Of a stretch of 64,000 nt of DNA, positions 5,094 through 48,175 are shown piece by piece. Made by a program: the position numbers and the translations under genes. Numbering within the stretch: position 1 is the stretch's first letter; every line of letters starts with the position of its first letter. Location: assembly GCF_988242995.1 (NCBI RefSeq), contig NZ_OZ547043.1; one strand, given 5' to 3'. The notes beneath the pieces are model-generated. The model saw only the letters and a list, made by a program, of their open reading frames with translations. It was not told the origin of the DNA and searched no databases.

Positions 5094-5157
5094 AAGAAAA
5101 CGCCTGTACTAAAACCGACCCGTGGTACAGGCGAAGAATACGGGTCTACATCGGAAG
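5094..5157 (-). ncRNA. rydC: RydC small regulatory RNA
   Basis: reverse complement reads CTTCCGATGTAGACCCGTATTCTTCGCCTGTACCACGGGTCGGTTTTAGTACAGGCGTTTTCTT, recognised as RydC; lies between cybB and ydcA. Confidence 0.75.
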
Positions 5158-5572: not shown

Positions 5573-5764
<192 letters not shown>

Positions 5765-5780
<16 letters not shown>

Positions 5781-5830
5781 TCGTTGGCCTCGGTTGATAG
5801 AAATATCGGTCGGGGCCTTCGTCTTTCTGA
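5765..5830 (+). ncRNA. sokB: putative SokB antisense RNA region (boundaries approximate)
   Basis: expected antisense to the mokB start/leader by analogy to hok/sok loci; not delimited from sequence alone. Confidence 0.25.
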
Positions 5831-6054
5831 TTCCCGGTTAGCCTGAAAACAGAAAGTCTCAGGCACCCGTGAGCATCCTATGTGGTTTCCTTAGGGACGA
5901 AAATAATCACCTGACGAAATTGCGTGCTGTTTTCCAGAATTTTTCGTCATTCGGGTTAGCCAGTTTAGCCATTCGTTACTCTCTTCATTCCAATAGCATT
6001 AATTTTCTCTGCAATAATTGTTGTAAAAATGTGACGCAAAGAGGTTTTTGGTCA

Positions 6055-12209: not shown

Positions 12210-12925
12210 CACAGAAAACCCCCAGCTAGGCTGGGGGTTCCGGAAAGCTTTCAGCTTTGAGCCAGTTATTAAAACCCCTTTTGATTTGTTAAAACACCTT
12301 GCGGTCTGGCAACTGCAAGTGTCAAACAAGAAATCAAAAGGGGGTCCCAATGGGGGACGAAAAGAGCTTAGCGCACACCCGCTGGAACTGTAAATATCAC
12401 ATAGTTTTTGCGCCGAAATACCGAAGACTGGCGTTTTACGGAGAGAAGCGTAGGGCGATAGGCAGTATTTTGAGAAAGCTGTGTGAGTGGAAAAGCGTAC
12501 GGATTCTGGAAGCAGAGTGCTGCGCAGATCATATCCATATGCTTGTGGAAATCCCACCCAAAATGAGCGTATCCGGCTTTATGGGATATCTGAAAGGGAA
12601 AAGCAGTCTGATGCTTTACGAGCAGTTTGGGGATTTGAAATTCAAATACAGAAACAGGGAGTTCTGGTGCCGAGGGTACTATGTCGATACGGTGGGTAAG
12701 AACACGGCGAAGATACAGGACTACATAAAGCACCAGCTTGAAGAGGATAAAATGGGGGAGCAGTTATCGATTCCATATCCGGGCGGCCCGTTTACGGGCC
12801 GTAAGTAACGAAGTTGAATGCAAATGTCAGATCGTATGCGCCTGTTAGGGCGCGGCTGGTAACAGAGCCTTACAGGCGCATTTGAAAAACCTCCGGCTAT
12901 GCCGGAGGATATTTATTAACAACTG
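12210..12925 (+). mobile_element. IS200-family (IS200/IS605) insertion sequence, ~0.7 kb (ends approximate)
   Basis: contains Y1 HUH transposase gene; subterminal hairpins (CCCCCAGCTAGGCTGGGGG near left end; GCGCCTGTTAGGGCGCG and CCGGCTATGCCGG near right end) typical of IS200 ends. Confidence 0.65.
12350..12808 (+). CDS. tnpA: IS200-family transposase TnpA (Y1 HUH)
   Basis: 152 aa from MGDEKSLAHTRWNCKYHIVFAPKYRR...; HUH motif (HIHM) and catalytic Tyr region; the 169-aa track ORF has an N-terminal extension. Confidence 0.85.
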   Translation: MGDEKSLAHTRWNCKYHIVFAPKYRRLAFYGEKRRAIGSILRKLCEWKSVRILEAECCADHIHMLVEIPPKMSVSGFMGYLKGKSSLMLYEQFGDLKFKYRNREFWCRGYYVDTVGKNTAKIQDYIKHQLEEDKMGEQLSIPYPGGPFTGRK

Positions 12926-35570: not shown

Positions 35571-36632
35571 ATGCATTTACGTCATCTGTTTTCATCGCGC
35601 CTGCGTGGTTCATTACTGTTAGGTTCATTGCTTGTTGCTTCATCATTCAGTACGCAGGCCGCAGAAGAAATGCTGCGTAAAGCGGTAGGTAAAGGTGCCT
35701 ACGAAATGGCTTATAGCCAGCAAGAAAACGCGCTGTGGCTCGCCACTTCGCAAAGCCGCAAACTGGATAAAGGCGGCGTGGTTTATCGTCTTGATCCGGT
35801 TACTCTGGAAGTGACGCAGGCGATCCATAACGATCTCAAGCCGTTTGGTGCTACCATCAACAACACGACTCAGACGTTGTGGTTTGGTAACACTGTAAAC
35901 AGCGCGGTCACGGCGATAGATGCCAAAACGGGCGAAGTGAAAGGCCGTCTGGTGCTGGATGATCGTAAGCGCACGGAAGAGGTGCGCCCGCTGCAACCGC
36001 GTGAGCTGGTGGCAGACGATGCCACGAACACCGTTTACATCAGTGGTATTGGTAAAGAGAGCGTGATTTGGGTCGTTGATGGCGAGAATATCAAACTGAA
36101 AACCGCCATCCAGAACACCGGTAAAATGAGTACCGGTTTAGCGCTGGATAGCAAAGGCAAACGTCTTTACACCACTAACGCTGACGGCGAATTGATTACC
36201 ATCGACACCGCCGACAATAAAATCCTCAGCCGTAAAAAGCTGCTGGATGACGACAAAGAGCACTTCTTTATCAACATCAGCCTTGATACCGCCAGGCAGC
36301 GTGCATTCATCACCGACTCTAAAGCGGCAGAAGTGTTAGTGGTCGATACCCGTAATGGCAATATTCTGGCGAAGGTTGCGGCACCGGAATCACTGGCTGT
36401 GCTGTTTAACCCCGCGCGTAATGAAGCCTACGTAACGCATCGTCAGGCAGGTAAAGTCAGTGTGATTGACGCGAAAAGCTATAAAGTGGTGAAAACGTTC
36501 GATACGCCGACTCATCCGAACAGCCTGGCGCTGTCTGCCGATGGCAAAACGCTGTATGTCAGTGTGAAACAAAAATCCACTAAACAGCAGGAAGCTACCC
36601 AGCCGGACGATGTGATTCGTATTGCGCTGTAA
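35571..36632 (+). CDS. yncE: beta-propeller (PQQ/YVTN-like repeat) periplasmic protein YncE
   Basis: 353 aa with signal peptide; recognised as YncE. Confidence 0.9.
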   Translation: MHLRHLFSSRLRGSLLLGSLLVASSFSTQAAEEMLRKAVGKGAYEMAYSQQENALWLATSQSRKLDKGGVVYRLDPVTLEVTQAIHNDLKPFGATINNTTQTLWFGNTVNSAVTAIDAKTGEVKGRLVLDDRKRTEEVRPLQPRELVADDATNTVYISGIGKESVIWVVDGENIKLKTAIQNTGKMSTGLALDSKGKRLYTTNADGELITIDTADNKILSRKKLLDDDKEHFFINISLDTARQRAFITDSKAAEVLVVDTRNGNILAKVAAPESLAVLFNPARNEAYVTHRQAGKVSVIDAKSYKVVKTFDTPTHPNSLALSADGKTLYVSVKQKSTKQQEATQPDDVIRIAL

Positions 36633-36714
36633 TAGATATGGCGAGGGTGAAAACGGAGAGACTTGCCTGACTTTTATCACGCCGTATCCGGTACCTTCGT
36701 CAGTAATTTGAATT

Positions 36715-36735
36715 TGCCCGGCACGTAGCCGGGCA
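36715..36735. terminator. hairpin between convergent yncE and ansP
   Basis: TGCCCGGC-ACGTA-GCCGGGCA followed by ATTTTG. Confidence 0.4.
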
Positions 36736-36744
36736 ATTTTGCAA

Positions 36745-38244
36745 TTAACTCGCCGTTTCAGGCTTAAACACAATTTCCTGTTGTTCTTCATCTTTCTCGA
36801 CGACTGGCGCAGTGCTGTGAATTTCAGCAACGCGTTTGCGCACACCAAACCAGCCTATAACCAGCAGAATACCGATAATCGGCAGCGCCGCGATAGTATA
36901 AGTCCCGTTCGGGTAATCGAACGCCATCAGCACAAGGACACTCAGTAAAAACAGTAATGTCAGCCAGGAAGTGAAGGGCGCGCCAGGCAGTTTAAAACTG
37001 ACATCCGCTGCTTTGCCTTCTTTAATCGCTTTACGCAGGCGCATCTGGCACACGATGATAAACGCCCATGAAGCGATGATTCCCAGCGACGCGAAGTTCA
37101 ACACAATCTCAAATACGCGCGACGGCACCAGATAGTTGAGGAATACGCCGACGACATACACAACCAGTGTCGCCAGAATCCCGGCATACGGCACATGCTG
37201 ACGACTCATTTTCGCCATAAAACTCGGTGCGGAACCGCCCATCGCCATTGAGCGCAGAATACGTCCGGTGCAGTACAGACCTGAGTTCAGGCTGGAGAGG
37301 GCAGCGGTCAGCACCACAATGTTCATAATGCTGCCGATGTACGGCACACCCAGTTTAGAGAAAAACGTCACGAACGGACTTTGCCCCGCCTGATACGCGC
37401 TCCACGGCAATAACATAACCAGCAACACCACGGAGCCGACGTAAAACAGGCCAATACGCCAAATCACACTGTTAATCGCTTTAGGCACCATGGTCTGCGG
37501 ATCTTTACATTCTCCGGCAGCTGTACCCACCATTTCAATGGAGGCAAAAGCAAACACTACGCCCTGAATCAACACCAGCGCAGGTAGCAAACCGTGGGGG
37601 AAGAAGCCGCCGTTATCGGTAATTAAATGAAAGCCAGTGGTGTTGCCATCCAGCGGCTGACCACTACCGAGGAACACTGTACCCACGACCAAAAAGGTCA
37701 CAATGGCGAGCACTTTAATAAGCGCAAACCAGAACTCCATCTCGGCAAACCATTTCACACCAATCATATTCATGGTGCCAACGATGGTCAGCGCAGCGAG
37801 CGCAAAGACCCACTGCGGTACACCACCAAATGCGCCCCAGTAATGCATATACAGTGCAACGGCGGTAATATCGACAATCCCTGTCATCGCCCAGTTGATG
37901 AAGTACATCCAGCCAGCAACATAAGCGGCTTTCTCTCCTAAAAACTCACGGGCATAAGAGACAAAACTGCCACTGGAAGGGCGGTGTAACACCAGCTCAC
38001 CCAATGCACGCAGAATAAAAAATGAAAACAGGCCGCAGATTAAATAGACCAGTGCCAGTGCTGGCCCCGCCATTTGCAGTCGGGCTCCTGCACCTAAAAA
38101 CAAGCCGGTGCCAATCGCGCCGCCAATGGCGATCATCTGTACCTGGCGATTGCCCATCGCTTTGTGATACCCCTCTTCGTGGGCATTAAGCCAGCGGCGT
38201 TTCGCGGCGTGCTGATCTGAAGTGTCGGTGTCGTGTTTACTCAT
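36745..38244 (-). CDS. ansP: L-asparagine permease (APC family)
   Basis: native start at internal Met (MSKHDTDTSDQHAAKRRWLNAHEEGYHKAMGNRQVQMIAIGGAIGTGLF..., 499 aa). Confidence 0.9.
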   Translation of the reverse strand: MSKHDTDTSDQHAAKRRWLNAHEEGYHKAMGNRQVQMIAIGGAIGTGLFLGAGARLQMAGPALALVYLICGLFSFFILRALGELVLHRPSSGSFVSYAREFLGEKAAYVAGWMYFINWAMTGIVDITAVALYMHYWGAFGGVPQWVFALAALTIVGTMNMIGVKWFAEMEFWFALIKVLAIVTFLVVGTVFLGSGQPLDGNTTGFHLITDNGGFFPHGLLPALVLIQGVVFAFASIEMVGTAAGECKDPQTMVPKAINSVIWRIGLFYVGSVVLLVMLLPWSAYQAGQSPFVTFFSKLGVPYIGSIMNIVVLTAALSSLNSGLYCTGRILRSMAMGGSAPSFMAKMSRQHVPYAGILATLVVYVVGVFLNYLVPSRVFEIVLNFASLGIIASWAFIIVCQMRLRKAIKEGKAADVSFKLPGAPFTSWLTLLFLLSVLVLMAFDYPNGTYTIAALPIIGILLVIGWFGVRKRVAEIHSTAPVVEKDEEQQEIVFKPETAS

Positions 38245-38509
38245 TGCTCTCCCTGATTGCTTTAATGAAAAAGTCATATAAGTTGCCATGAACAATGTTT
38301 ATTCATCCTGGCGATGATAGTTATCACCATTATTCTTTATGGGTATAAAACTATCGGCGCAGCATCCTACCTGTTATCGATAAACGATGCAAAACATCCC
38401 CTTACAATCCTGATGGGGATTTATACAACTGACAAAAAAATGACCATCCTTTTGCAGGTTAACCTGTGTGCTGTCTTACACTTAATCTTTAAAGGATTGT
38501 GAGGGGCAT

Positions 38510-39109
38510 ATGATTAAGGTGTATGGCGTACCCGGATGGGGCTCTACAATCAGTGAGCTGATGCTAACACTGGCTGATATCCCTTATCAGTTCGTTGGTG
38601 TCAGTGGTTTTGACCACGAGGGAACTTCACGCGAGTTATTGAAAACCCTGAACCCGTTGTGTCAGGTTCCGACACTGGCGCTGGAAAATGACGAGATTAT
38701 GACGGAGACAGCGGCGATTGCATTGATGGTTCTCGATCGTCGCCCGGACCTTGCGCCACCGCTTGGGCGCGCCGAACGTCAGCAGTTTCAACGGCTATTG
38801 GTCTGGCTGGTTGCTAATGTCTATCCAACGTTCACTTTCGCCGATTACCCTGAGCTTTGGGCTCCTGACGCGCCTGAACAGTTAAAGAAGAATGTTATTG
38901 AATATCGTTTTATATCTGGTTGAATTCGCAGCTCACTGCTGAACCTTATGCGTTTGGCGATCAGCTACCCTTATCTCTGCGTTATGCGCATATGGGGACC
39001 GGGGCATGAATGGTTTCAAGATAATGCCGCGAATATCAGTGCGATTGCTGATGCTGTATGTCCGATACCAACGTTACAAGAAATACTAAAAAGGAATGCC
39101 ATTATTTAA
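38510..39109 (+). pseudogene. yncG: glutathione S-transferase-like gene yncG, disrupted by frameshifts
   Basis: N-terminal GST-like ORF ends prematurely at 38923 (137 aa); downstream sequence continues GST-like in two other frames (…YIWLNSQLTAEPYAFGDQL… then …YLCVMRIWGPGHEWFQDNAANISAIADAVC…), implying at least two indels. Confidence 0.7.
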
Positions 39110-39329
39110 CAATAATGCCGGAGATTAATGTTAATAAATCACTGGCGTAGTTAACTGGACATCCATTTGTTTGCTATGAATGGTAATTAAAGTTGGTACA
39201 ATTATTTATATGATTTATGTAATCTCGTTTTTTATATGAAATATCAATTTAATATAATCCGAAAATAAAACATCCTTTCGCATGTAGAGAAATATGTCGA
39301 TATGATAGCGCCGTGCAGATCATGTTATC

Positions 39330-40685
39330 AGGGCAGAGCGGTAGCGTATCAGGGAAAAAGCATGAAAGCCCGCGCCCCACAAGACTTTGGTGAATGATGA
39401 ATTTTTAAATCGCGACATTACTTTTATCGTAAAACCCATCATGTTGATCTTTTTTTTCGATCAATTTGACCATCTTATTTCAGTGTGATCTTATCCTTTC
39501 TTTTTGATGGATAGCACACCATGAACGGACTAAGCCTTTTGGATCAAATTTCAATTATTCACGATTATCGCCAGTCCTGGAAAACCAGTTACAGCCTGGC
39601 GGATATCCTTTTTCTGACGATCACCGCCATTATCGGTGGCGCTGAAGGATGGGAAGAAATTGCTGATTTTGGTGAGGAGCATCTGGAATGGTTACGCCTG
39701 TATGGTGATTTTGAAAATGGCACCCCCTCCCATCACACGATTGCCCGAGTGATGGGAATGATTTCAGCAAAACAATTACAGCCCCTTTTTATCCAGTAGA
39801 TGAAGGACTGTCACACGTTGTCTGAAGGCTCTGTTGTGGCGATTGATGGTAAGTCATTACGGGGTACTTACGATAAATCGAAACGTAATGCCGTGATCCA
39901 TAGGGTCAGTGCTTTTAGCGCAGAAAATCGTCTGGTTTTGGGGCAGGTGAAAACAGGGGCAAAATCGAATGAGATAACGGCGATCCCGGAACGGCTCCAG
40001 TTGCTGGAATTAAAAGGGTGTCTGGTCACGCTGGATGCAATGGGTTGCCAGCATATAATCGCCCGTGAAATTCTGAAAAAGAAAGCCGGTTACCTGCTGG
40101 CGCTGAAAGGAAATCAGGGAAAATTAGCGGAGGCGTTTGATAACGGGTACTCGCCGACAATGTGGCTGGGTGAGAGGTATGACAGTTACAGCACGCAGGA
40201 AAAAGGGCATGGACGGGAAGATACACGATGCTGCATTGTGAGCCATGATTTAACCGCTCTGGGTGATTTAGCTTATGAATGGTCAGAGCTGAGCACGATA
40301 GGAATAGTGCTGGCGAGCAGACAGGAAGGAGAAACAGCGGTGAAATCAGAGAAGTGTATTCTTCGCTACTACATAAGTTCGGTGACGCTTACGGCGAAAG
40401 AACTCCTGGAAGCAACACGAGCACACTGGTCGGTAGAAAATCAACTGCACTGGCGACTTGATATGGGGATGCGGGAAGATGAATGCCAGATTGTTCGTGG
40501 AGAAGCGGGAGAAAATCTGGCAGTTTGTCGACATATCGCGATGAATTTACTGACCGCAGAGAATAGCTTTAAAGCGGGTATTAAACGCAAGCAAAAGCGG
40601 GCAGGACGTAAGAATGAATACCTTTCTCTAATCCTTGCTGGCTGCGGGCCTTCATGATTTCGCCCTGCGGTTAGAGGTTAATTAT
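39330..40685 (+). mobile_element. H-repeat (ISAs1-family) element, copy 1 (ends approximate)
   Basis: ~100-bp conserved upstream block (ATGAAAGCCCGCGCCCCACAAG...CATCATGTTG) shared with the second copy at ~46100; transposase-like ORF; similar sequence just after both stop codons. Confidence 0.6.
39521..40657 (+). pseudogene. H-repeat-associated (ISAs1-family) transposase interrupted by in-frame amber codon
   Basis: 92-aa and 285-aa ORFs are in the same frame, separated only by TAG at 39797-39799; combined 378 codons, same length as the intact paralog at 46358..47494. Confidence 0.75.
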
Positions 40686-41078
40686 GCTCCTGGTATGCAT
40701 GGTAAATTGATTTTGTGTTTCTCATGGTATGCTGTTAATTATAAGAGATGATTGTTTTTAAGGTTGATTAATATGTAATTCATATTTGTCATGCGACATA
40801 AAGTAATCGATTTTTTTTGTTGTGGCTTTAATTGATGGTTCTAAGGTATGCAGTTTGAGAACGTTCAGTGAATGATGTATATACAATAATAAATAATATT
40901 TGCAATAAATTTGTGTGGGTGGTTATTTTTATATTTCATTGGTACGGGATTTTACGGTTAATTAGTGAAGAGGACTTCGCTAATTTATATAGATTATTCG
41001 GGGAAATCTTATTCACTGGTTATGAATCAGTATGGATTGCACTCAGAATAAAACCATAAATAATTTAAGGAATAAACC

Positions 41079-44000
41079 ATGAGCGGAAAACCGGCGGCGC
41101 GACAGGGCGATATGACCCGCAAGGGACTGGATATTGTGCAGGGTTCAGCGGGGGTGCTGATAGGTGCGCCGACGGGAGTGGCCTGCTCGGTGTGTCCCAA
41201 CAGCCCGGTGGAGGAGCAGAAGGGTAACCCGGTGAACCCGCTACTGGGTGCGAAGGTGCTGCCGGGCGAGACGGATCTTGCGCTGCCCGGCCCGTTGCCG
41301 TTTATTCTTTCCCGCGCCTACAGCAGCTACCGGACCAGGACACCCGCGCCGGTGGGGGTGTTTGGTCCCGGCTGGAAAGCGCCCTTCGATATCCGCTTAC
41401 AGGTTCATGAGCGGGAACTGATACTCAACGACAGTGGCGGCAGGAGCATTCACTTTGAGCCGCTGTTTCCCGGCGAGATAAGCTACAGCCGCAGCGAGTC
41501 GTTCTGGCTGGCAAGGGGCGGGGTGGCGGAGCAGCACAGTTCGCAGCCGCTAAGCGCGCTCTGGCAGGTGCTGCCGGAGAGTCTCCGCTTAAGCCCGCAT
41601 GTGTACCTGGCGACAAACAGCCTTCAGGGGCCGTGGTGGATACTCGGCTGGCCGGAGCGGGTACCGGAGGCGGACGAGGTGCTGCCGCCGGAGCCGCCCG
41701 CATACCGGGTGCTGACGGGCGTGGTGGACGGCTTCGGGCGGACGCTGGCCTTCCACCGGGCGGCAGAGGGGGAAGCGGCGGGCGCGGTGACGGGGGTGAC
41801 GGACGGCGCGGGCCGCCGTTTTCATCTGGCGCTGACCACACAGGCGCAGCGGGCGAAAGCCTTCCGTAAACAGCGCGAGTCTTCTTTATCTTCTCCGGCC
41901 AGTCCCCGTTCTGTTTCCTCTTCTCAGTTTTTCCCCGACACGCTGCCCACCGGTACAGAGTACGGTGCCGATAACGGTATCCGGCTGGAGGCGGTATGGC
42001 TGACACACGACCCGGCATACCCGGATGAACTGCCGACTGCGCCGCTGGCGCGCTACACGTACACGGCCAGCGGAGAACTGCGGGCGGTGTATGACCGCAG
42101 CGGTACGCAGGTGCGCGGGTTTACTTATGATGCGGAGCACGCCGGGCGGATGGTGGCGCACCATTATGCGGGGAGGCCGGAGAGCCGCTACCGGTATGAT
42201 GATACCGGTCGGGTGACGGAGCAGGTCAACCCGGAGGGGCTGGACTACCGCTTTGAGTACGGGCAGGACCGCGTGACCATCACGGACAGCCTGAACCGGC
42301 GGGAGGTGCTGTACACGGAGGGCGAGGGCGGCCTGAAGCGGGTGGTGAAGAAGGAGTATGGGGACGGGAGCATCACCCGCAGCGAGTATGATGAGGCGGG
42401 GAGGCTGAAGGCGCAGACGGATGCGGCGGGACGGCGGACGGAGTACCGGCTGCATATGGCGTCGGGAAAGCTGACTTCAGTGATACTGCCGGACGGCAGG
42501 ACGGTACGGTATGGTTACAACAACCAGTTGCAACTGACGTCAGTGACGTACCCGGACGGGCTGCGCCGCAGCCGGAAATATGACCGTCAGGGCAGGCTGG
42601 CGGAAGAGGTCTCGCGCAACGGTAACATTACGCGCTGGTTTTATGATTCTTCCCGCAGTGGCCTGCCCTGTGCGGTGGAAGACGGAACCGGGGTGAGGCG
42701 GAGAATAACGCGAAACCGGTACGGTCAGCTTCAGGCATTTACGGACTGTTCAGGGTACACGACGCGGTATGAATACGACCGGTACGGTCAGAGGACGGCG
42801 GTTCACCGGGAGGAAGGCATCAGCACTTACAGCAGTTATAACCCGCGTGGTCAACTGGTCAGTCAGAAGGATGCGCAGGGACGTGAAACCCGTTATGAGT
42901 ACAGCGCCGCAGGCGACCTCACCGCTATCATTGCCCCGAACGGCAGCCGGAGTGAGACACAGTATGATGCGTGGGGAAAGGCCGTCAGCACCACGCAGGG
43001 CGGACTGACGCGCAGCATGGAGTATGACGCCGCCGGGAGCATCACCGTGCTGACCAACGAGAACGGCAGCCAGTCCACGTTCCGGTATGACCCGGTGGAC
43101 AGGCTGACGGAGCAGCGCGGCTTTGACGGCAGGACACAGCGTTACCGGTACAGCGCCACAGGGCAGCTCATCCGCAGCGAGGATGAGGGGCAGGTCACGC
43201 AGTGGTACTACGATGACGCCGGGCGCATCACGCACCGGACGGTGAACGGCGACCCGGCGGAGCAGTGGCAGTATGACGACCACGGCTGGCTGACAGAAAT
43301 CAGCCACCTGAGCGAAGGCCACCGTGTGGCGGTCCACTACGGCTATGACGATAAAGGCCGCCTGACGGGCGAACGGCAGACGGTGGAGAACCAGGAGACG
43401 GGGGAGATGCTGTGGGAGCATGAGACGAGGCACGTCTACAGCGAACAGGGGCTGGCGACCCGTCAGGAGCCGGACGGTCTGCCGCCGGTGGAGTGGCTGA
43501 CGTATGGCAGCGGTTATCTTGCGGGGATGAAGCTGGGCGGAACGCCGCTGGTCGAGTACACGCGGGACCGGCTGCACCGTGAGACGGCCCGCAGCTTCGG
43601 CGGGGCGGGCAGTACAGCGGGGTACGAACAGGCCACGGCGTACACCCTCACAGGGCAGCTCCGGAGCAGGCACCTGAACCTTCCGCAGCTTGACCGTGAG
43701 TATACGTGGAACGATAACGGGCAACTGGTGCGCATCAGCGGCCCGCAGGAGAGCCGGAAGTACCGTTACAGCGACACGGGAAGACTGACGGGCGTTCACA
43801 CCACGGCGGCGAACCTGGATATCGATATCCCGTATGCGACGGACCCGGCAGGAAACCGGCTGCCGGACCCGGAACTGCACCCGGACAGCACCTTCACGGC
43901 GTGGCCGGATAACCGCATCACGGAAGATGCGCACTATGTCTACCGCTACGATGAATACGGCAGGCTGGCGGAGAAGACGGACCGTATCCCGGAAGGGGTG

Positions 44001-45290
44001 ATACGGATGCACGACGAGCGGACGCACCACTACCATTACGACAGCCAGCACCGCCTGGTGTTCTACACGCGGATACAGCACGGCGAGCCACAGGTGGAGA
44101 GCCGCTACCTCTATGACCCGCTGGGCCGCCGGACGGGGAAACGGGTGTGGCGGCGGGAGCGTGACCTGACGGGGTGGATGTCGCTGTCGCGTAAACCGGA
44201 GGAGACCTGGTACGGGTGGGACGGTGACAGGCTGACGACGGTACAGACCGGCACCACGCGTATCCAGACGGTATACCAGCCGGGGAGCTTCACGCCGCTC
44301 ATCAGAATCGAAACAGAGAATGGTGAACAGGCGAAGGCGCGGCACCGGAGTCTGGCGGAGGTGTTGCAGGAGGACACGGGGGTGACGCTACCGGCGGAGC
44401 TGTCGGTGATGCTGGGGAGGCTGGAGCGGGAACTGCGCGCGGGTGCGGTGAGTGCGGAGAGTGAGGCATGGCTTCAGCAGTGCGGGCTGACGGCGGAACA
44501 GATGAAAAACCAGATGGAGGCGGAATACATCCCGGAGAGGACACTTCATCTTTACCACTGCGACCACCGGGGGCTGCCGCAGGCGCTCATCAGCCCGGAA
44601 GGGGAAACGGCGTGGCAGGGGGAGTATGACGAGTGGGGAAACCTGCTGGGCGAAACCAGCGCGCAGCAACTGCAACAGCCGTACCGTCTGCCGGGGCAGC
44701 AGTATGATGAGGAGTCGGGGCTGTACTATAACCGCAACCGGTACTATGACCCGTTGCAGGGGCGGTATATCACCCAGGATCCCATTGGGCTAAGAGGTGC
44801 ATGGAACCTGTATCAGTATCCATTGAATCCAACTACTAAGATAGATCCGTTGGGTCTCTCCGGAGAAGATTCCATAGAGCAGTCAGGTCCATCTTGGTTG
44901 ATTGCTGACCCCATGGATAAATACAGACAACAGGCAGTGATGGGTTTAACAAAATTGTGGGATGATACCTTTAGTCAAGAGAAGACTAAATGTTTACCTA
45001 CGACACCTGAAAACATCAGGATGGTTGTGGCCAACAGTCCCTTGTTGACAGTACAACAAAAAGTCTCAGTACCCGTAGTAGCTCACTACGTACAAATGCT
45101 GGAAGATGGTAGTGGAGCACCACCGGTTGATATGGATGGGAATGTGATTGTTAATGGTAATCACAGGATGGTTGCGGGTCTGTTATGTGATAAACTTCCT
45201 CCTGAGCGGCCAGGTACGCGTCCATTATCGGCACCACTATATCCGTTTAGCCAAATTTTTCCGGAGTTAGATGATTGGGGGAATAGATGA
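41079..45290 (+). CDS. Rhs-family polymorphic toxin, full length (PAAR-like N-terminus, YD-repeat shell, DPxGL boundary, variable C-terminal toxin tip)
   Basis: 1403 aa; N-terminus [12 protein letters not shown]...GVACSVCPN; many YD repeats; conserved core end ...[33 protein letters not shown] (ends 44858); GC-rich core, AT-rich tip after 44858. Confidence 0.95.
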
Positions 45291-45772
45291 TAAGAATCGC
45301 GTTTTTAATAACCAATAAATTTCTTGATATAGATAGTACCACTCTTGCTGGATATGATTTTAGCGGGATGGATCTACATCGTGCCATCCTCAATGGTTAT
45401 TGTCTTGATGGGGCGAAATTTGAAAATTCCCATTTAAGAAATGTAATGATTCAACATACATCAACTAGAAATGCTGTCTTTCGCAATGCGGCTCTGATGA
45501 ACGCTATTCTTAATAACTCAGATTTCACTGGAAGTGACTTTAGTAATTCAAGGTCAATAGGTGCAAACTTTGAGGGTGCTATATTAACTAATTCAACCTT
45601 TTGCAATGCAGACGTTAAAGATTCAAATTTTTCTGGTGCTGACTTATGTGGCGCTAATTTATTATGTGATAGATATGGCGATATAAATATAACAGGTGCA
45701 TTATTCGATAAAAACACCTCATGGTTAGAAGGTTTTGATCCTATAGCTCATGGGGCTATATTAAAAATATGA
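45287..45772 (+). CDS. pentapeptide-repeat protein, putative cognate immunity protein of the Rhs C-terminal toxin
   Basis: 161 aa; start overlaps rhs stop (ATGA); consecutive A(D/N)(L/F)xx pentapeptides ([40 protein letters not shown]...); AT-rich like the toxin tip. Confidence 0.8.
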
Positions 45773-46064
45773 CAAGGATCATAACTCATTATTTTCTGTG
45801 TCAGTAACACTGATGTGGAAAGTAGACTTACTTGCAATAGCCACCGGGATCTGCTGTTGAAAGCCGATCCCAAACAACCCCGGTTGCTGTGGTAAAGAGT
45901 CATAGTAGCGAGCGCAGGGGGAGTGCTCAGATTATATGAGATACAGTGAAATGAATAAACCCGAACCTGTGTTGACGTGTCGTTAGTCCTAAGCGGCATC
46001 AGAACCGGAGGTTTCGTGATACCGCCGTGATAAATTTACGGGTGAATTCCGAATGCTACGTAAA

Positions 46065-47520
46065 GGGTGTCCGGCGTATAGCAGACATCAGGATAAAAGT
46101 ATGAAAGCCCACGCCCCACAAGGCTTTACCGGATGATGAGTTTTTAAACTACGACATTACTTTTACAGTAAAATCCATCATGTTGGTATTTTCTCTCGAA
46201 CAATTTGACGATCCACGGAAAGATCACGTAACGCTGCTTTTTTGTACTAGACAATTCGCATTTTATGTTTAACAATTGAGATATTCCTCATTACCTGAAG
46301 CTGTTTTTTATTGCGTATACATGATCAAATACTCCTTACATAATTAAGGAGAACAAAATGGAACTTAAAAAATTGATGGAACATATTTCTATTATCCCCG
46401 ATTACAGACAAGCCTGGAAAGTGGAACATAAATTTTCGGATATTCTACTGTTGACTATTTGTGCCGTTATTTCGGGTGCAGAAGGCTGGGAAGATATAGA
46501 GGATTTTGGGGAAACACATCTCGATTTTTTGAAGCAATATGGTGATTTTGATAATGGTATTCCTGTTCACGATACCATTGCCAGAGTTGTATCCTGTATC
46601 AGTCCTGCAAAATTTCACGAGTGCTTTATTAACTGGATGCGTGACTGCCATTCTTCAGATGATAAAGACGTCATCGCAATTGATGGAAAAACACTCCGGC
46701 ATTCTTATGACAAGAGTCGCCGCAAGGGAGCGATTCATGTCATTAGTGCGTTCTCAACAATGCACAGTCTGGTTATCGGACAGATCAGGACGGATGAGAA
46801 ATCCAATGAGATTACAGCTATTCCAGAACTTCTTAACATGCTGGATATTAAAGGAAAAATCATCACAACTGATGCGATGGGTTGCCAGAAAGATATTGCA
46901 GAGAAGATACAAAAACAGGGCGGTGATTATTTATTCGCTGTAAAAGGAAACCAGGGGCGGCTAAATAAAGCCTTCGAGGAAAAATTTCCGCTGAAAGAAT
47001 TAAATAATCCAGAGCATGACAGTTACGCAATTAGTGAAAAGAGTCACGGCAGAGAAGAAATCCGTCTTCACATTGTTTGCGATGTCCCTGATGAACTTAT
47101 TGATTTCACGTTTGAATGGAAAGGTCTGAAGAAATTATGCGTGGCAGTCTCCTTTCGGTCAATAATAGCAGAACAAAAGAAAGAGCCAGAAATGACGGTC
47201 AGATATTATATCAGTTCTGCTGATTTAACCGCAGAGAAGTTCGCCACAGCAATCCGAAACCACTGGCACGTGGAGAATAAGCTGCACTGGCGTCTGGACG
47301 TGGTAATGAATGAAGACGACTGCAAAATAAGAAGAGGAAATGCAGCAGAATTATTTTCAGGGATACGGCACATGGCTATTAATATTTTAACGAATGATAA
47401 GATATTTAAGGCAGGGTTAAGACGTAAGATGCGAAAAGCAGCCATGGACAGAAACTACCTGGCGTCAGTCCTTGCTGGGTGCGGGCTTTCGTAATCTTGC
47501 CCTGCGCCAAAGATTCCATA
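46065..47520 (+). mobile_element. H-repeat (ISAs1-family) element, copy 2 (ends approximate)
   Basis: conserved upstream block homologous to copy 1; intact transposase ORF. Confidence 0.6.
46358..47494 (+). CDS. ydcC: H-repeat-associated (ISAs1-family) transposase, intact (YdcC-like)
   Basis: 378 aa; [52 protein letters not shown]...; clearly related to but diverged from the copy at 39521..40657. Confidence 0.85.
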
Positions 47521-47539: not shown

Positions 47540-48175
47540 ATGAATAAAGGTAATAGATTACAACAGTTAGAAGATGCGTGTCGTGATATTATTAAAATTA
47601 ACATGTGGTATGAACTCCCCGATTATGTATTTTTTTCAATATCTGACACCATCGATGGGACGAGTGATGAATTTGCAATAAATGTGTATAAAAATATCGA
47701 TAAAAGTCTTCTTGAAATATTATTGCATCCATCTGTTTTACTGTCAGTTGTTGAGTCCTTACAAAGTAATACTATAGCTGAGTATATCGTGAAATTGTCT
47801 GGAATAGAGATGAATTATGACGACTTGCTAATATCGGATGTTAAGTCATGTCTTTTTATCAACTATGGATTCAATAACAGTGAATCGGTTGCGCTATTTA
47901 ATAAGATTTGCCGCGAATTAAAAGACATTGTAAAATCATCAAGAGTACATATAGATCATGAGAAAGATATTTTTGATGGCCTTAATCAAATCTTGGCTTT
48001 TTCCGATAATAATAAACGTGAGTATTTTTTATATATAAAGGCATATTGGCTCAGTTTATACTTTTGTGAAATTTCACAGAACGTGAGAGAAAGAGATAAG
48101 TTGTCATTTTATTATAATGAATTTTCTGTCCGATTTCCTAATGTTGTCCTATATCCGTCATGCTACAAATTGTAA
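47540..48175 (+). CDS. hypothetical protein (211 aa), AT-rich, no TM segments
   Basis: ORF track; AAGG 7 nt upstream of ATG; very low GC; no recognisable family. Confidence 0.5.
   Translation: MNKGNRLQQLEDACRDIIKINMWYELPDYVFFSISDTIDGTSDEFAINVYKNIDKSLLEILLHPSVLLSVVESLQSNTIAEYIVKLSGIEMNYDDLLISDVKSCLFINYGFNNSESVALFNKICRELKDIVKSSRVHIDHEKDIFDGLNQILAFSDNNKREYFLYIKAYWLSLYFCEISQNVRERDKLSFYYNEFSVRFPNVVLYPSCYKL

Follow-up and report, generated by a model that had tools for sequence, protein, structure and literature searches.

An amber codon in an ISAs1-family transposase gene beside an Escherichia coli Rhs element: a probable fixed nonsense pseudogene

The split reading frame at 39521–40657 of the window (the whole stretch of 64,000 nucleotides analyzed here) is, in our opinion, best explained as a fixed nonsense pseudogene. 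It would be the transposase gene of a single-copy, immobile insertion sequence (IS) of the ISAs1 family, an Rhs-associated H-repeat, inactivated by a change of TGG to TAG; we put the probability of this explanation at about 90%. Translation from ATG 39521 would then stop after 92 residues, giving the N-terminal DDE_Tnp_1_assoc domain alone, and the DDE catalytic domain (codons 94–378) would not be made within a full-length enzyme. With the catalytic domain left unattached, the element would be unable to supply its own full-length transposase. The N-terminal domain is presumed, from general transposase design, to recognize the ends of the element. Transposase activity has thus most likely been lost, and the two fragments probably serve no selected function.

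The gene is already known, as RefSeq carries it as an internal-stop pseudogene in the relatives inspected, and H-repeat pseudogenes at Rhs loci have long been known as well. One more inactivated IS gene at an Rhs locus matters very little. Carried by 140 of 5426 complete genomes, the TAG allele is a stable marker of one E. coli lineage, and it is an example of how mutation of a Trp-Met dipeptide to TAG-ATG can give the look of two coupled genes. Were the fragments functional, they would have a bearing on the regulation of ISAs1 elements.

The interrupted gene and its element

The sequence-only reading of this DNA described two same-frame ORFs, of 92 and 285 amino acids, parted only by the TAG at 39797–39799, which is directly followed by ATG; the sequence and the ORF list bear this out. 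The two ORFs (39521..39799 and 39800..40657) occupy one frame of the plus strand, and their junction reads ...TTT ATC CAG TAG ATG AAG GAC..., with the ATG at 39800. The combined length (92 + 1 + 285 = 378 codons) had also been said to equal that of an intact paralog downstream, and it does: the paralog, which is of the ydcC type, has a 378-aa ORF at 46358..47494. When Trp is put at the stop, the resulting 378-aa product aligns with this paralog without a gap (50% identity, E = 9e-140).

Domain models agree with the earlier identification of the gene as an H-repeat transposase. The 5′ part of the gene (39521..39796, + strand; codons 1–92) holds a complete N-terminal DDE_Tnp_1_assoc domain (PF13808, residues 8–92, E = 2.8e-28). 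The 3′ part (39800..40657, + strand; codons 94–378), which starts at the ancestral Met94, holds the DDE catalytic domain (DDE_Tnp_1, PF01609, E = 1.7e-22). In the ydcC-type paralog, PF13808 and PF01609 are found in a single chain. On the NCBIfam model of the ISAs1 family transposase, NF033564, the first ORF covers profile positions 1–63 and the second ORF positions 66–314, with scores of 71.1 bits (cut-off 70) and 292.9 bits, respectively. Because the two ORFs match successive parts of one model and the alignment to the paralog is gapless, they evidently represent one gene cut by one codon, not two ORFs adjoining by chance. The TAG is positioned exactly in the linker that joins the two Pfam domains, and both resulting ORFs hold complete domains. 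The residues of the DDE triad (D109, D172, and E306) are intact and lie in invariant alignment columns.

Comparison with relatives, ydcC, and more distant homologs identifies the codon that the amber codon (39797..39799, + strand) replaced. The closest full-length proteins in a collection of 5.8 billion clusters are 83, 83, 79, 79, 78, 76, and 76% identical, and all of them are 378 aa long. The DNA of the three closest intact relatives (contigs L003, L004, and L005) and that of ydcC reads TGG ATG at the amber site. The corresponding protein column has Trp in 108 of 109 full-length homologs and Cys in the remaining one, with no stop in any, and the next column has Met in 108 of 110 family members. 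Since close intact relatives have TGG and nearly the whole family has Trp, the alignments show that the ancestral codon was TGG (Trp93) and that it was changed by a single G>A transition (TGG>TAG, W93*). Because the Trp-Met dipeptide is near-universal in the family, ATG 39800 is the ancestral Met94 and not an evolved restart codon.

The gene belongs to a complete ISAs1-family insertion sequence of the H-repeat type, here termed IS-A (39350..40667, + strand, 1318 bp), the limits of which are the limits of homology to the same three relatives. Homology to their contigs begins at CAGGG(A/C)AAAAGCATGAAAGCCC and ends at ...TTCATGATTTCGCCCTG (...CCCTG); moreover, the repeat-collapsed contig L004 is exactly 1318 nt long, the same as IS-A. 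The terminal 24 nt of IS-A are inverted repeats that match at 20 of 24 positions. The left repeat, CAGGGAAAAAGCATGAAAGCCCGC (39350..39373, + strand), is defined by its match to the right end and is kept in the relatives. The right repeat (40644..40667, + strand; reverse complement CAGGGCGAAATCATGAAGGCCCGC), placed by alignment to the relatives, holds the TGA stop of the transposase gene. The left flank is matched by thousands of element-free E. coli genomes, and in several of them the match stops at window position 39349. The top pair of an inverted-repeat scan of 39300–40900, 39502–39524 with 40722–40744, was rejected as the ends of the element, the true ends being those given by alignment to the relatives. 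The flanks of IS-A, ...GGTAGCGTAT and CGGTTAGAGG..., contain no direct repeat that would represent a target-site duplication. Recombination at the Rhs boundary at a later time could account for the missing duplication, and assignment to the family by transposase and ends is unaffected.

The criteria applied for family membership were a match to the ISAs1 equivalog model and to DDE_Tnp_1, and a length of ~1.2–1.5 kb with short imperfect terminal inverted repeats. By its transposase model, domain pair, size, and inverted repeats, IS-A classifies as an ISAs1-family/H-repeat element. An active element of this kind has an uninterrupted transposase ORF; that of IS-A is interrupted by the amber at codon 93, and this, together with the missing target-site duplication, sets IS-A apart from active elements. 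A scan for sigma-70-like promoters found none inside the element upstream of 39521, and its total number of matches equaled the shuffle expectation.

IS-A is like known ISAs1-family insertion sequences, among them the H-repeats of E. coli (H-rpt; K-12 ydcC, ybfD, and yhhI) and IS1358 of V. cholerae: it is ~1.3 kb long, has one 378-codon ORF with DDE_Tnp_1_assoc and DDE_Tnp_1 domains that matches NF033564, is bounded by CAGGG... inverted repeats, and lies beside an Rhs core gene. Unlike these elements, it has an amber-cut ORF and no visible target-site duplication. It also differs from the known H-repeats in being a distinct subtype, the best intact relatives of which (76–83% identical) come from metagenome assemblies. 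K-12 has no ortholog of IS-A, the protein identity being 57% to yncI and 50% to ydcC. K-12 does offer a parallel in yncI and ybfL, which are likewise H-repeat transposase genes inactivated in place beside an Rhs element. The first of these, yncI, is at the same locus (RhsE/ydcC), where the MG1655 annotation has it as a pseudogene. However, it is of another H-repeat subtype, lies between ydcD and ydcC, and is more damaged (tblastn finds it in two pieces), whereas the IS-A gene has one lesion.

Distribution of the amber allele

A 1337-nt query around the gene finds the element in 145 of the 5426 complete E. coli genomes, in all cases at ≥99% identity. Nearly all of these carriers have one copy, and no copy is on a plasmid. 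An 81-nt probe centered on the TAG, sized so that one mismatch drops a match below the 99% band, matched 140 complete E. coli genomes; all 140 sequences are identical and have the TAG. Among 241 million metagenome records, a 33-mer in which the codon at the amber site was wild-carded (NNN) matched nine contigs. All nine carry TAG, in elements that are 99.85–100% identical, and all those long enough to show flanks have the same flanks as the window. The wild-carded 33-mer has no match among 100,044 species-representative genomes. No intact allele of the element more than 83% identical to it was found in the 5.8 billion protein clusters, the 241 million metagenome records, or the 100,044 species-representative genomes. 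Differences among the known copies amount to no more than 2 nt in 1318, i.e., there is essentially no variation within the allele.

The sequence-only reading had allowed for a base-call error at 39797–39799 and had proposed a comparison of this codon across strains. The comparison returns TAG throughout and no sense allele of the element. The idea that the TAG is a sequencing or assembly artefact, the true codon being a sense codon, has nothing that we could count in its favor; it is ruled out by the identical TAG in all 140 independently assembled complete genomes and all nine metagenome contigs, and we assign it a practically negligible probability. Between 39421 and 40757, the window differs from 100+ genomes solely at position 40672 (T in the window vs G in the others), which is 5 bp beyond the right end of the IS and outside the gene. 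None of the complete genomes in the collection matches this interval of the window exactly.

The carrier lineage amounts to ~2.6% of complete E. coli genomes; one of its records bears the label ST38. For the gene in the four relatives that were looked at, the PGAP annotation is "ISAs1 family transposase", marked as a pseudogene with the remark "internal stop". Judging by the copies compared, the TAG mutation is older than the common ancestor of every known copy and appears to have arisen once; it would then have passed down one E. coli lineage along with the Rhs element next to it. The element occupies one chromosomal site only and is single-copy, with no sign of transposition. Such an occurrence at one fixed site is consistent with an inactive element.

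Fate of the gene and of its two parts

Apart from the TAG, the gene has no frameshift, and its dN/dS against relatives is 0.03–0.05, although dS against the nearest relatives is saturated (>1.2 or undefined), which makes the ratio uninformative for dating the inactivation. The low dN/dS, the lack of frameshifts, and the intact DDE residues indicate that the gene was under purifying selection for most of its history. As the gene is otherwise in good shape, the lesion must be young when set against the divergence of the gene from its nearest relatives. A recent nonsense inactivation, one of the possibilities raised at the outset, is thus upheld as far as the inactivation is concerned, given the TGG in close relatives; the word "recent" stands only in relation to the time since the nearest intact relatives, 76% identical at the nucleotide level, branched off.

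In a relative-rate comparison, the window copy shows no more than a slight non-synonymous excess (124.7 differences to the outgroup, vs 116.6 and 106.7). The window copy has eight substitutions at columns that are ≥90% conserved, including L158R, D190G, V195L, and E234D, vs a median of three, and ranks 3–4 of 110 in this respect. This excess is modest and no more than a hint of relaxed constraint, as three intact homologs score as high or higher. In some strains the decay of the element goes on. All that is left of it in XJ6.1 (L009 2355–3834) is the last 434 nt, which lie with an adjoining intact ISAs1 transposase gene between two Rhs core genes. Strain U1 (L010 3501–5442) has an IS1 inserted ~50 nt into the ORF; the remainder is deleted, and the Rhs region is replaced.

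The sequence-only reading had also considered that the gene might be expressed by readthrough or reinitiation. As a mechanism in use, neither finds support: the ATG is Met94 and has no Shine-Dalgarno sequence, and no diverged relative has the stop. In the case of programmed or selected readthrough, the UAG would be translated with a fixed low frequency, Gln from a near-cognate tRNA-Gln being the residue probably inserted. Much 92-aa N-terminal protein and little full-length transposase would result, by analogy with the OrfA/OrfAB ratio of IS1 and IS3. The position of the stop in the inter-domain linker suits this idea, as does the otherwise intact downstream ORF with its conserved DDE residues. 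Moreover, in Salmonella pseudogenes readthrough affects UAG more often than the other stops; it occurs at low levels and mostly as Gln, with C enriched at positions −1 and +4 (PMC9122581). A role in readthrough has also been proposed for in-frame stops that orthologs share (PMC7918605). The stop in IS-A, however, is limited to one allele, with copies ≥99.85% identical, and is present in none of the 109 diverged family members, 108 of which have Trp. Its context is CAG-UAG-A, with G at −1 and A at +4 instead of the enriched C, and Gln would stand in for a Trp that hardly varies in the family. As a single-copy element that occurs at no other place in any genome, IS-A gives no sign of transposition, and the strains XJ6.1 and U1 have destroyed it further. 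Selected readthrough is, for these reasons, very improbable.

The nonsense "pseudo-pseudogenes" of Salmonella do resemble the IS-A gene in that a G>A transition put an in-frame UAG into an enterobacterial gene that is intact in other respects (PMC9122581). Unlike them, the IS-A gene is known from sequence alone, and its stop is flanked by G at −1 and A at +4 and not by the favored C; the Salmonella study left out multi-copy genes (PMC9122581). Since low-level UAG readthrough is seen in enterobacteria (PMC9122581), zero full-length protein cannot be claimed for IS-A, and some basal readthrough at codon 93 is plausible by analogy. The window contains no amber-suppressor tRNA. A likeness to the OrfA/OrfAB arrangement of IS1 and IS3 also exists, as a small ORF with the N-terminal domain lies upstream, a catalytic ORF lies downstream, and the full-length enzyme needs recoding. 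However, IS1 and IS3 rely on programmed −1 frameshifting, which is family-wide and involves slippery sequences and stimulatory structures, whereas IS-A has an in-frame nonsense codon confined to one allele and unconserved.

Termination followed by reinitiation at ATG 39800, or initiation at TTG 39818, would yield two separate polypeptides, the N-terminal and the DDE domain, acting separately or together; for example, the 92-aa protein might regulate other H-repeat copies. The direct adjacency of stop and start (TAGATG) has the geometry of translational coupling, but it follows automatically from mutation of a Trp-Met dipeptide, ATG 39800 being the Met94 found in 108 of 110 homologs. The sequence before 39800 offers no Shine-Dalgarno pairing (0 kcal/mol, vs −9.2 for ydcC). 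An SD-like AAGGA (−5.4 kcal/mol) does precede TTG 39818, and gene callers predict products of 279 and 273 aa (P0008, P0009) from the TAG allele; the AAGGA probably explains the 279-aa product, with which the 273-aa product shares its N-terminus. Both pieces of the gene are complete Pfam domains; however, the two-ORF arrangement is found in no relative, and, going by general transposase design, recognition of the element ends would not be expected of the catalytic domain on its own. The further degradation in U1 and XJ6.1 also argues against a maintained function. Taken together, these points make reinitiation or internal initiation very improbable.

A selected role could also be imagined in which the lineage kept the stand-alone 92-aa N-terminal protein, presumed to bind element ends, as a trans-acting regulator or inhibitor of other H-repeats, while traces of the catalytic domain arose via rare UAG readthrough or restart at 39800 or 39818. 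If true, this would be an in-frame-stop counterpart of the IS1/IS3 OrfA/OrfAB system; we consider it highly unlikely. A selected function for the fragments of any kind has, in our estimate, only a slight chance of being correct. It stays alive because the stop falls in the inter-domain linker, leaving two complete domains, and because the copies have no variation since the mutation by which selection could be gauged. The nonsense pseudogene thus remains our preferred explanation.

The Rhs neighborhood

IS-A sits at the left edge of an Rhs element: on one side of it lies the yncG region and on the other a full-length Rhs core gene. The Rhs core gene is followed by a pentapeptide-repeat ORF, a ydcC-type H-repeat, yddH, nhoA, and narVWYZ; this is the ansP-yncG-rhsE-ydcC neighborhood of K-12. 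The Rhs core protein (1403 aa; gene 41079–45290, + strand) has RHS_repeat, DUF6531, and RHS domains and a C-terminal tip with no Pfam match, whereas K-12 has only a truncated rhsE pseudogene at this site. The pentapeptide-repeat ORF (161 aa; 45287–45772, + strand) overlaps the Rhs gene by 4 nt and is in the position of an immunity gene.

The intact paralogous H-repeat (46214..47504, + strand, 1291 bp; ORF 46358–47494, 378 aa) corresponds to K-12 ydcC. Immediately before it lies a remnant, 125 nt of the left end of another copy of the IS-A type (46089..46213, + strand; 82% identical), found by blastn of IS-A against the window. The remnant comprises the left inverted repeat and the 5′ untranslated region and ends exactly where the ydcC-type H-repeat begins (46214), which indicates that one H-repeat was nested in, or recombined with, another. 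Between the pentapeptide-repeat ORF and this remnant, at 45840–45948 (+ strand), there is a 5′ fragment of a group II intron (domains D1–D4), matched by the Rfam family group-II-D1D4-2 (48 bits, gathering score 36, E = 1.2e-6). There are reports of such fragments in the H-repeat/Rhs DNA of E. coli. Directly after the ydcC-type H-repeat lies a 211-aa ORF (47540–48175, + strand) with no Pfam match, which may be an orphan Rhs-tip or immunity-type gene; K-12 has only pptA there.

On the other side of IS-A, yncG, a glutathione S-transferase homolog (38510–39109, + strand), is split into ORFs of 137 and 53 aa. It is intact in K-12 (618 nt) and annotated by PGAP as "frameshifted; internal stop" in relatives, and it is thus a second pseudogene directly beside the dead transposase gene. 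When the window is compared with L001 (CFSAN061763, ST38-like), 65 differences are found at 36429–39000 (~2.5%), vs four at 39000–43757 (~0.08%). This drop in the density of differences near 39000 places a recombination breakpoint close to the 3′ end of yncG. Strains with different ansP-yncG backbones have the block of H-repeat and Rhs, with its TAG, almost unchanged in common.

In a B2 strain, E. coli O2:H6 PG20180057 (L007 5071–5230), a 155-nt left end of a ydcC-type H-repeat (window 46214–46368) lies 5 bp from the backbone position at which IS-A starts (39349/39350). It is followed by type VI secretion genes (PAAR, VgrG, and DUF2169) in place of the H-repeat and Rhs. Because this remnant is at the same boundary, two H-repeat subtypes mark one island boundary in different lineages.

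Elsewhere in the window, the only call made by ARAGORN was a permuted "tmRNA*" of 710 nt (2047–2756, − strand; tag peptide AGSYPLLQQSAY). It is probably a false positive, as Rfam finds no tmRNA in the window. Rfam matches at the gathering level include the RydC sRNA (5094–5157, − strand), a sok antitoxin RNA of a hok/sok-type locus (5717–5868, − strand), and the Hfq-binding RNA STnc490 (12217–12340, + strand). These three are ordinary E. coli features and confirm the chromosomal neighborhood.
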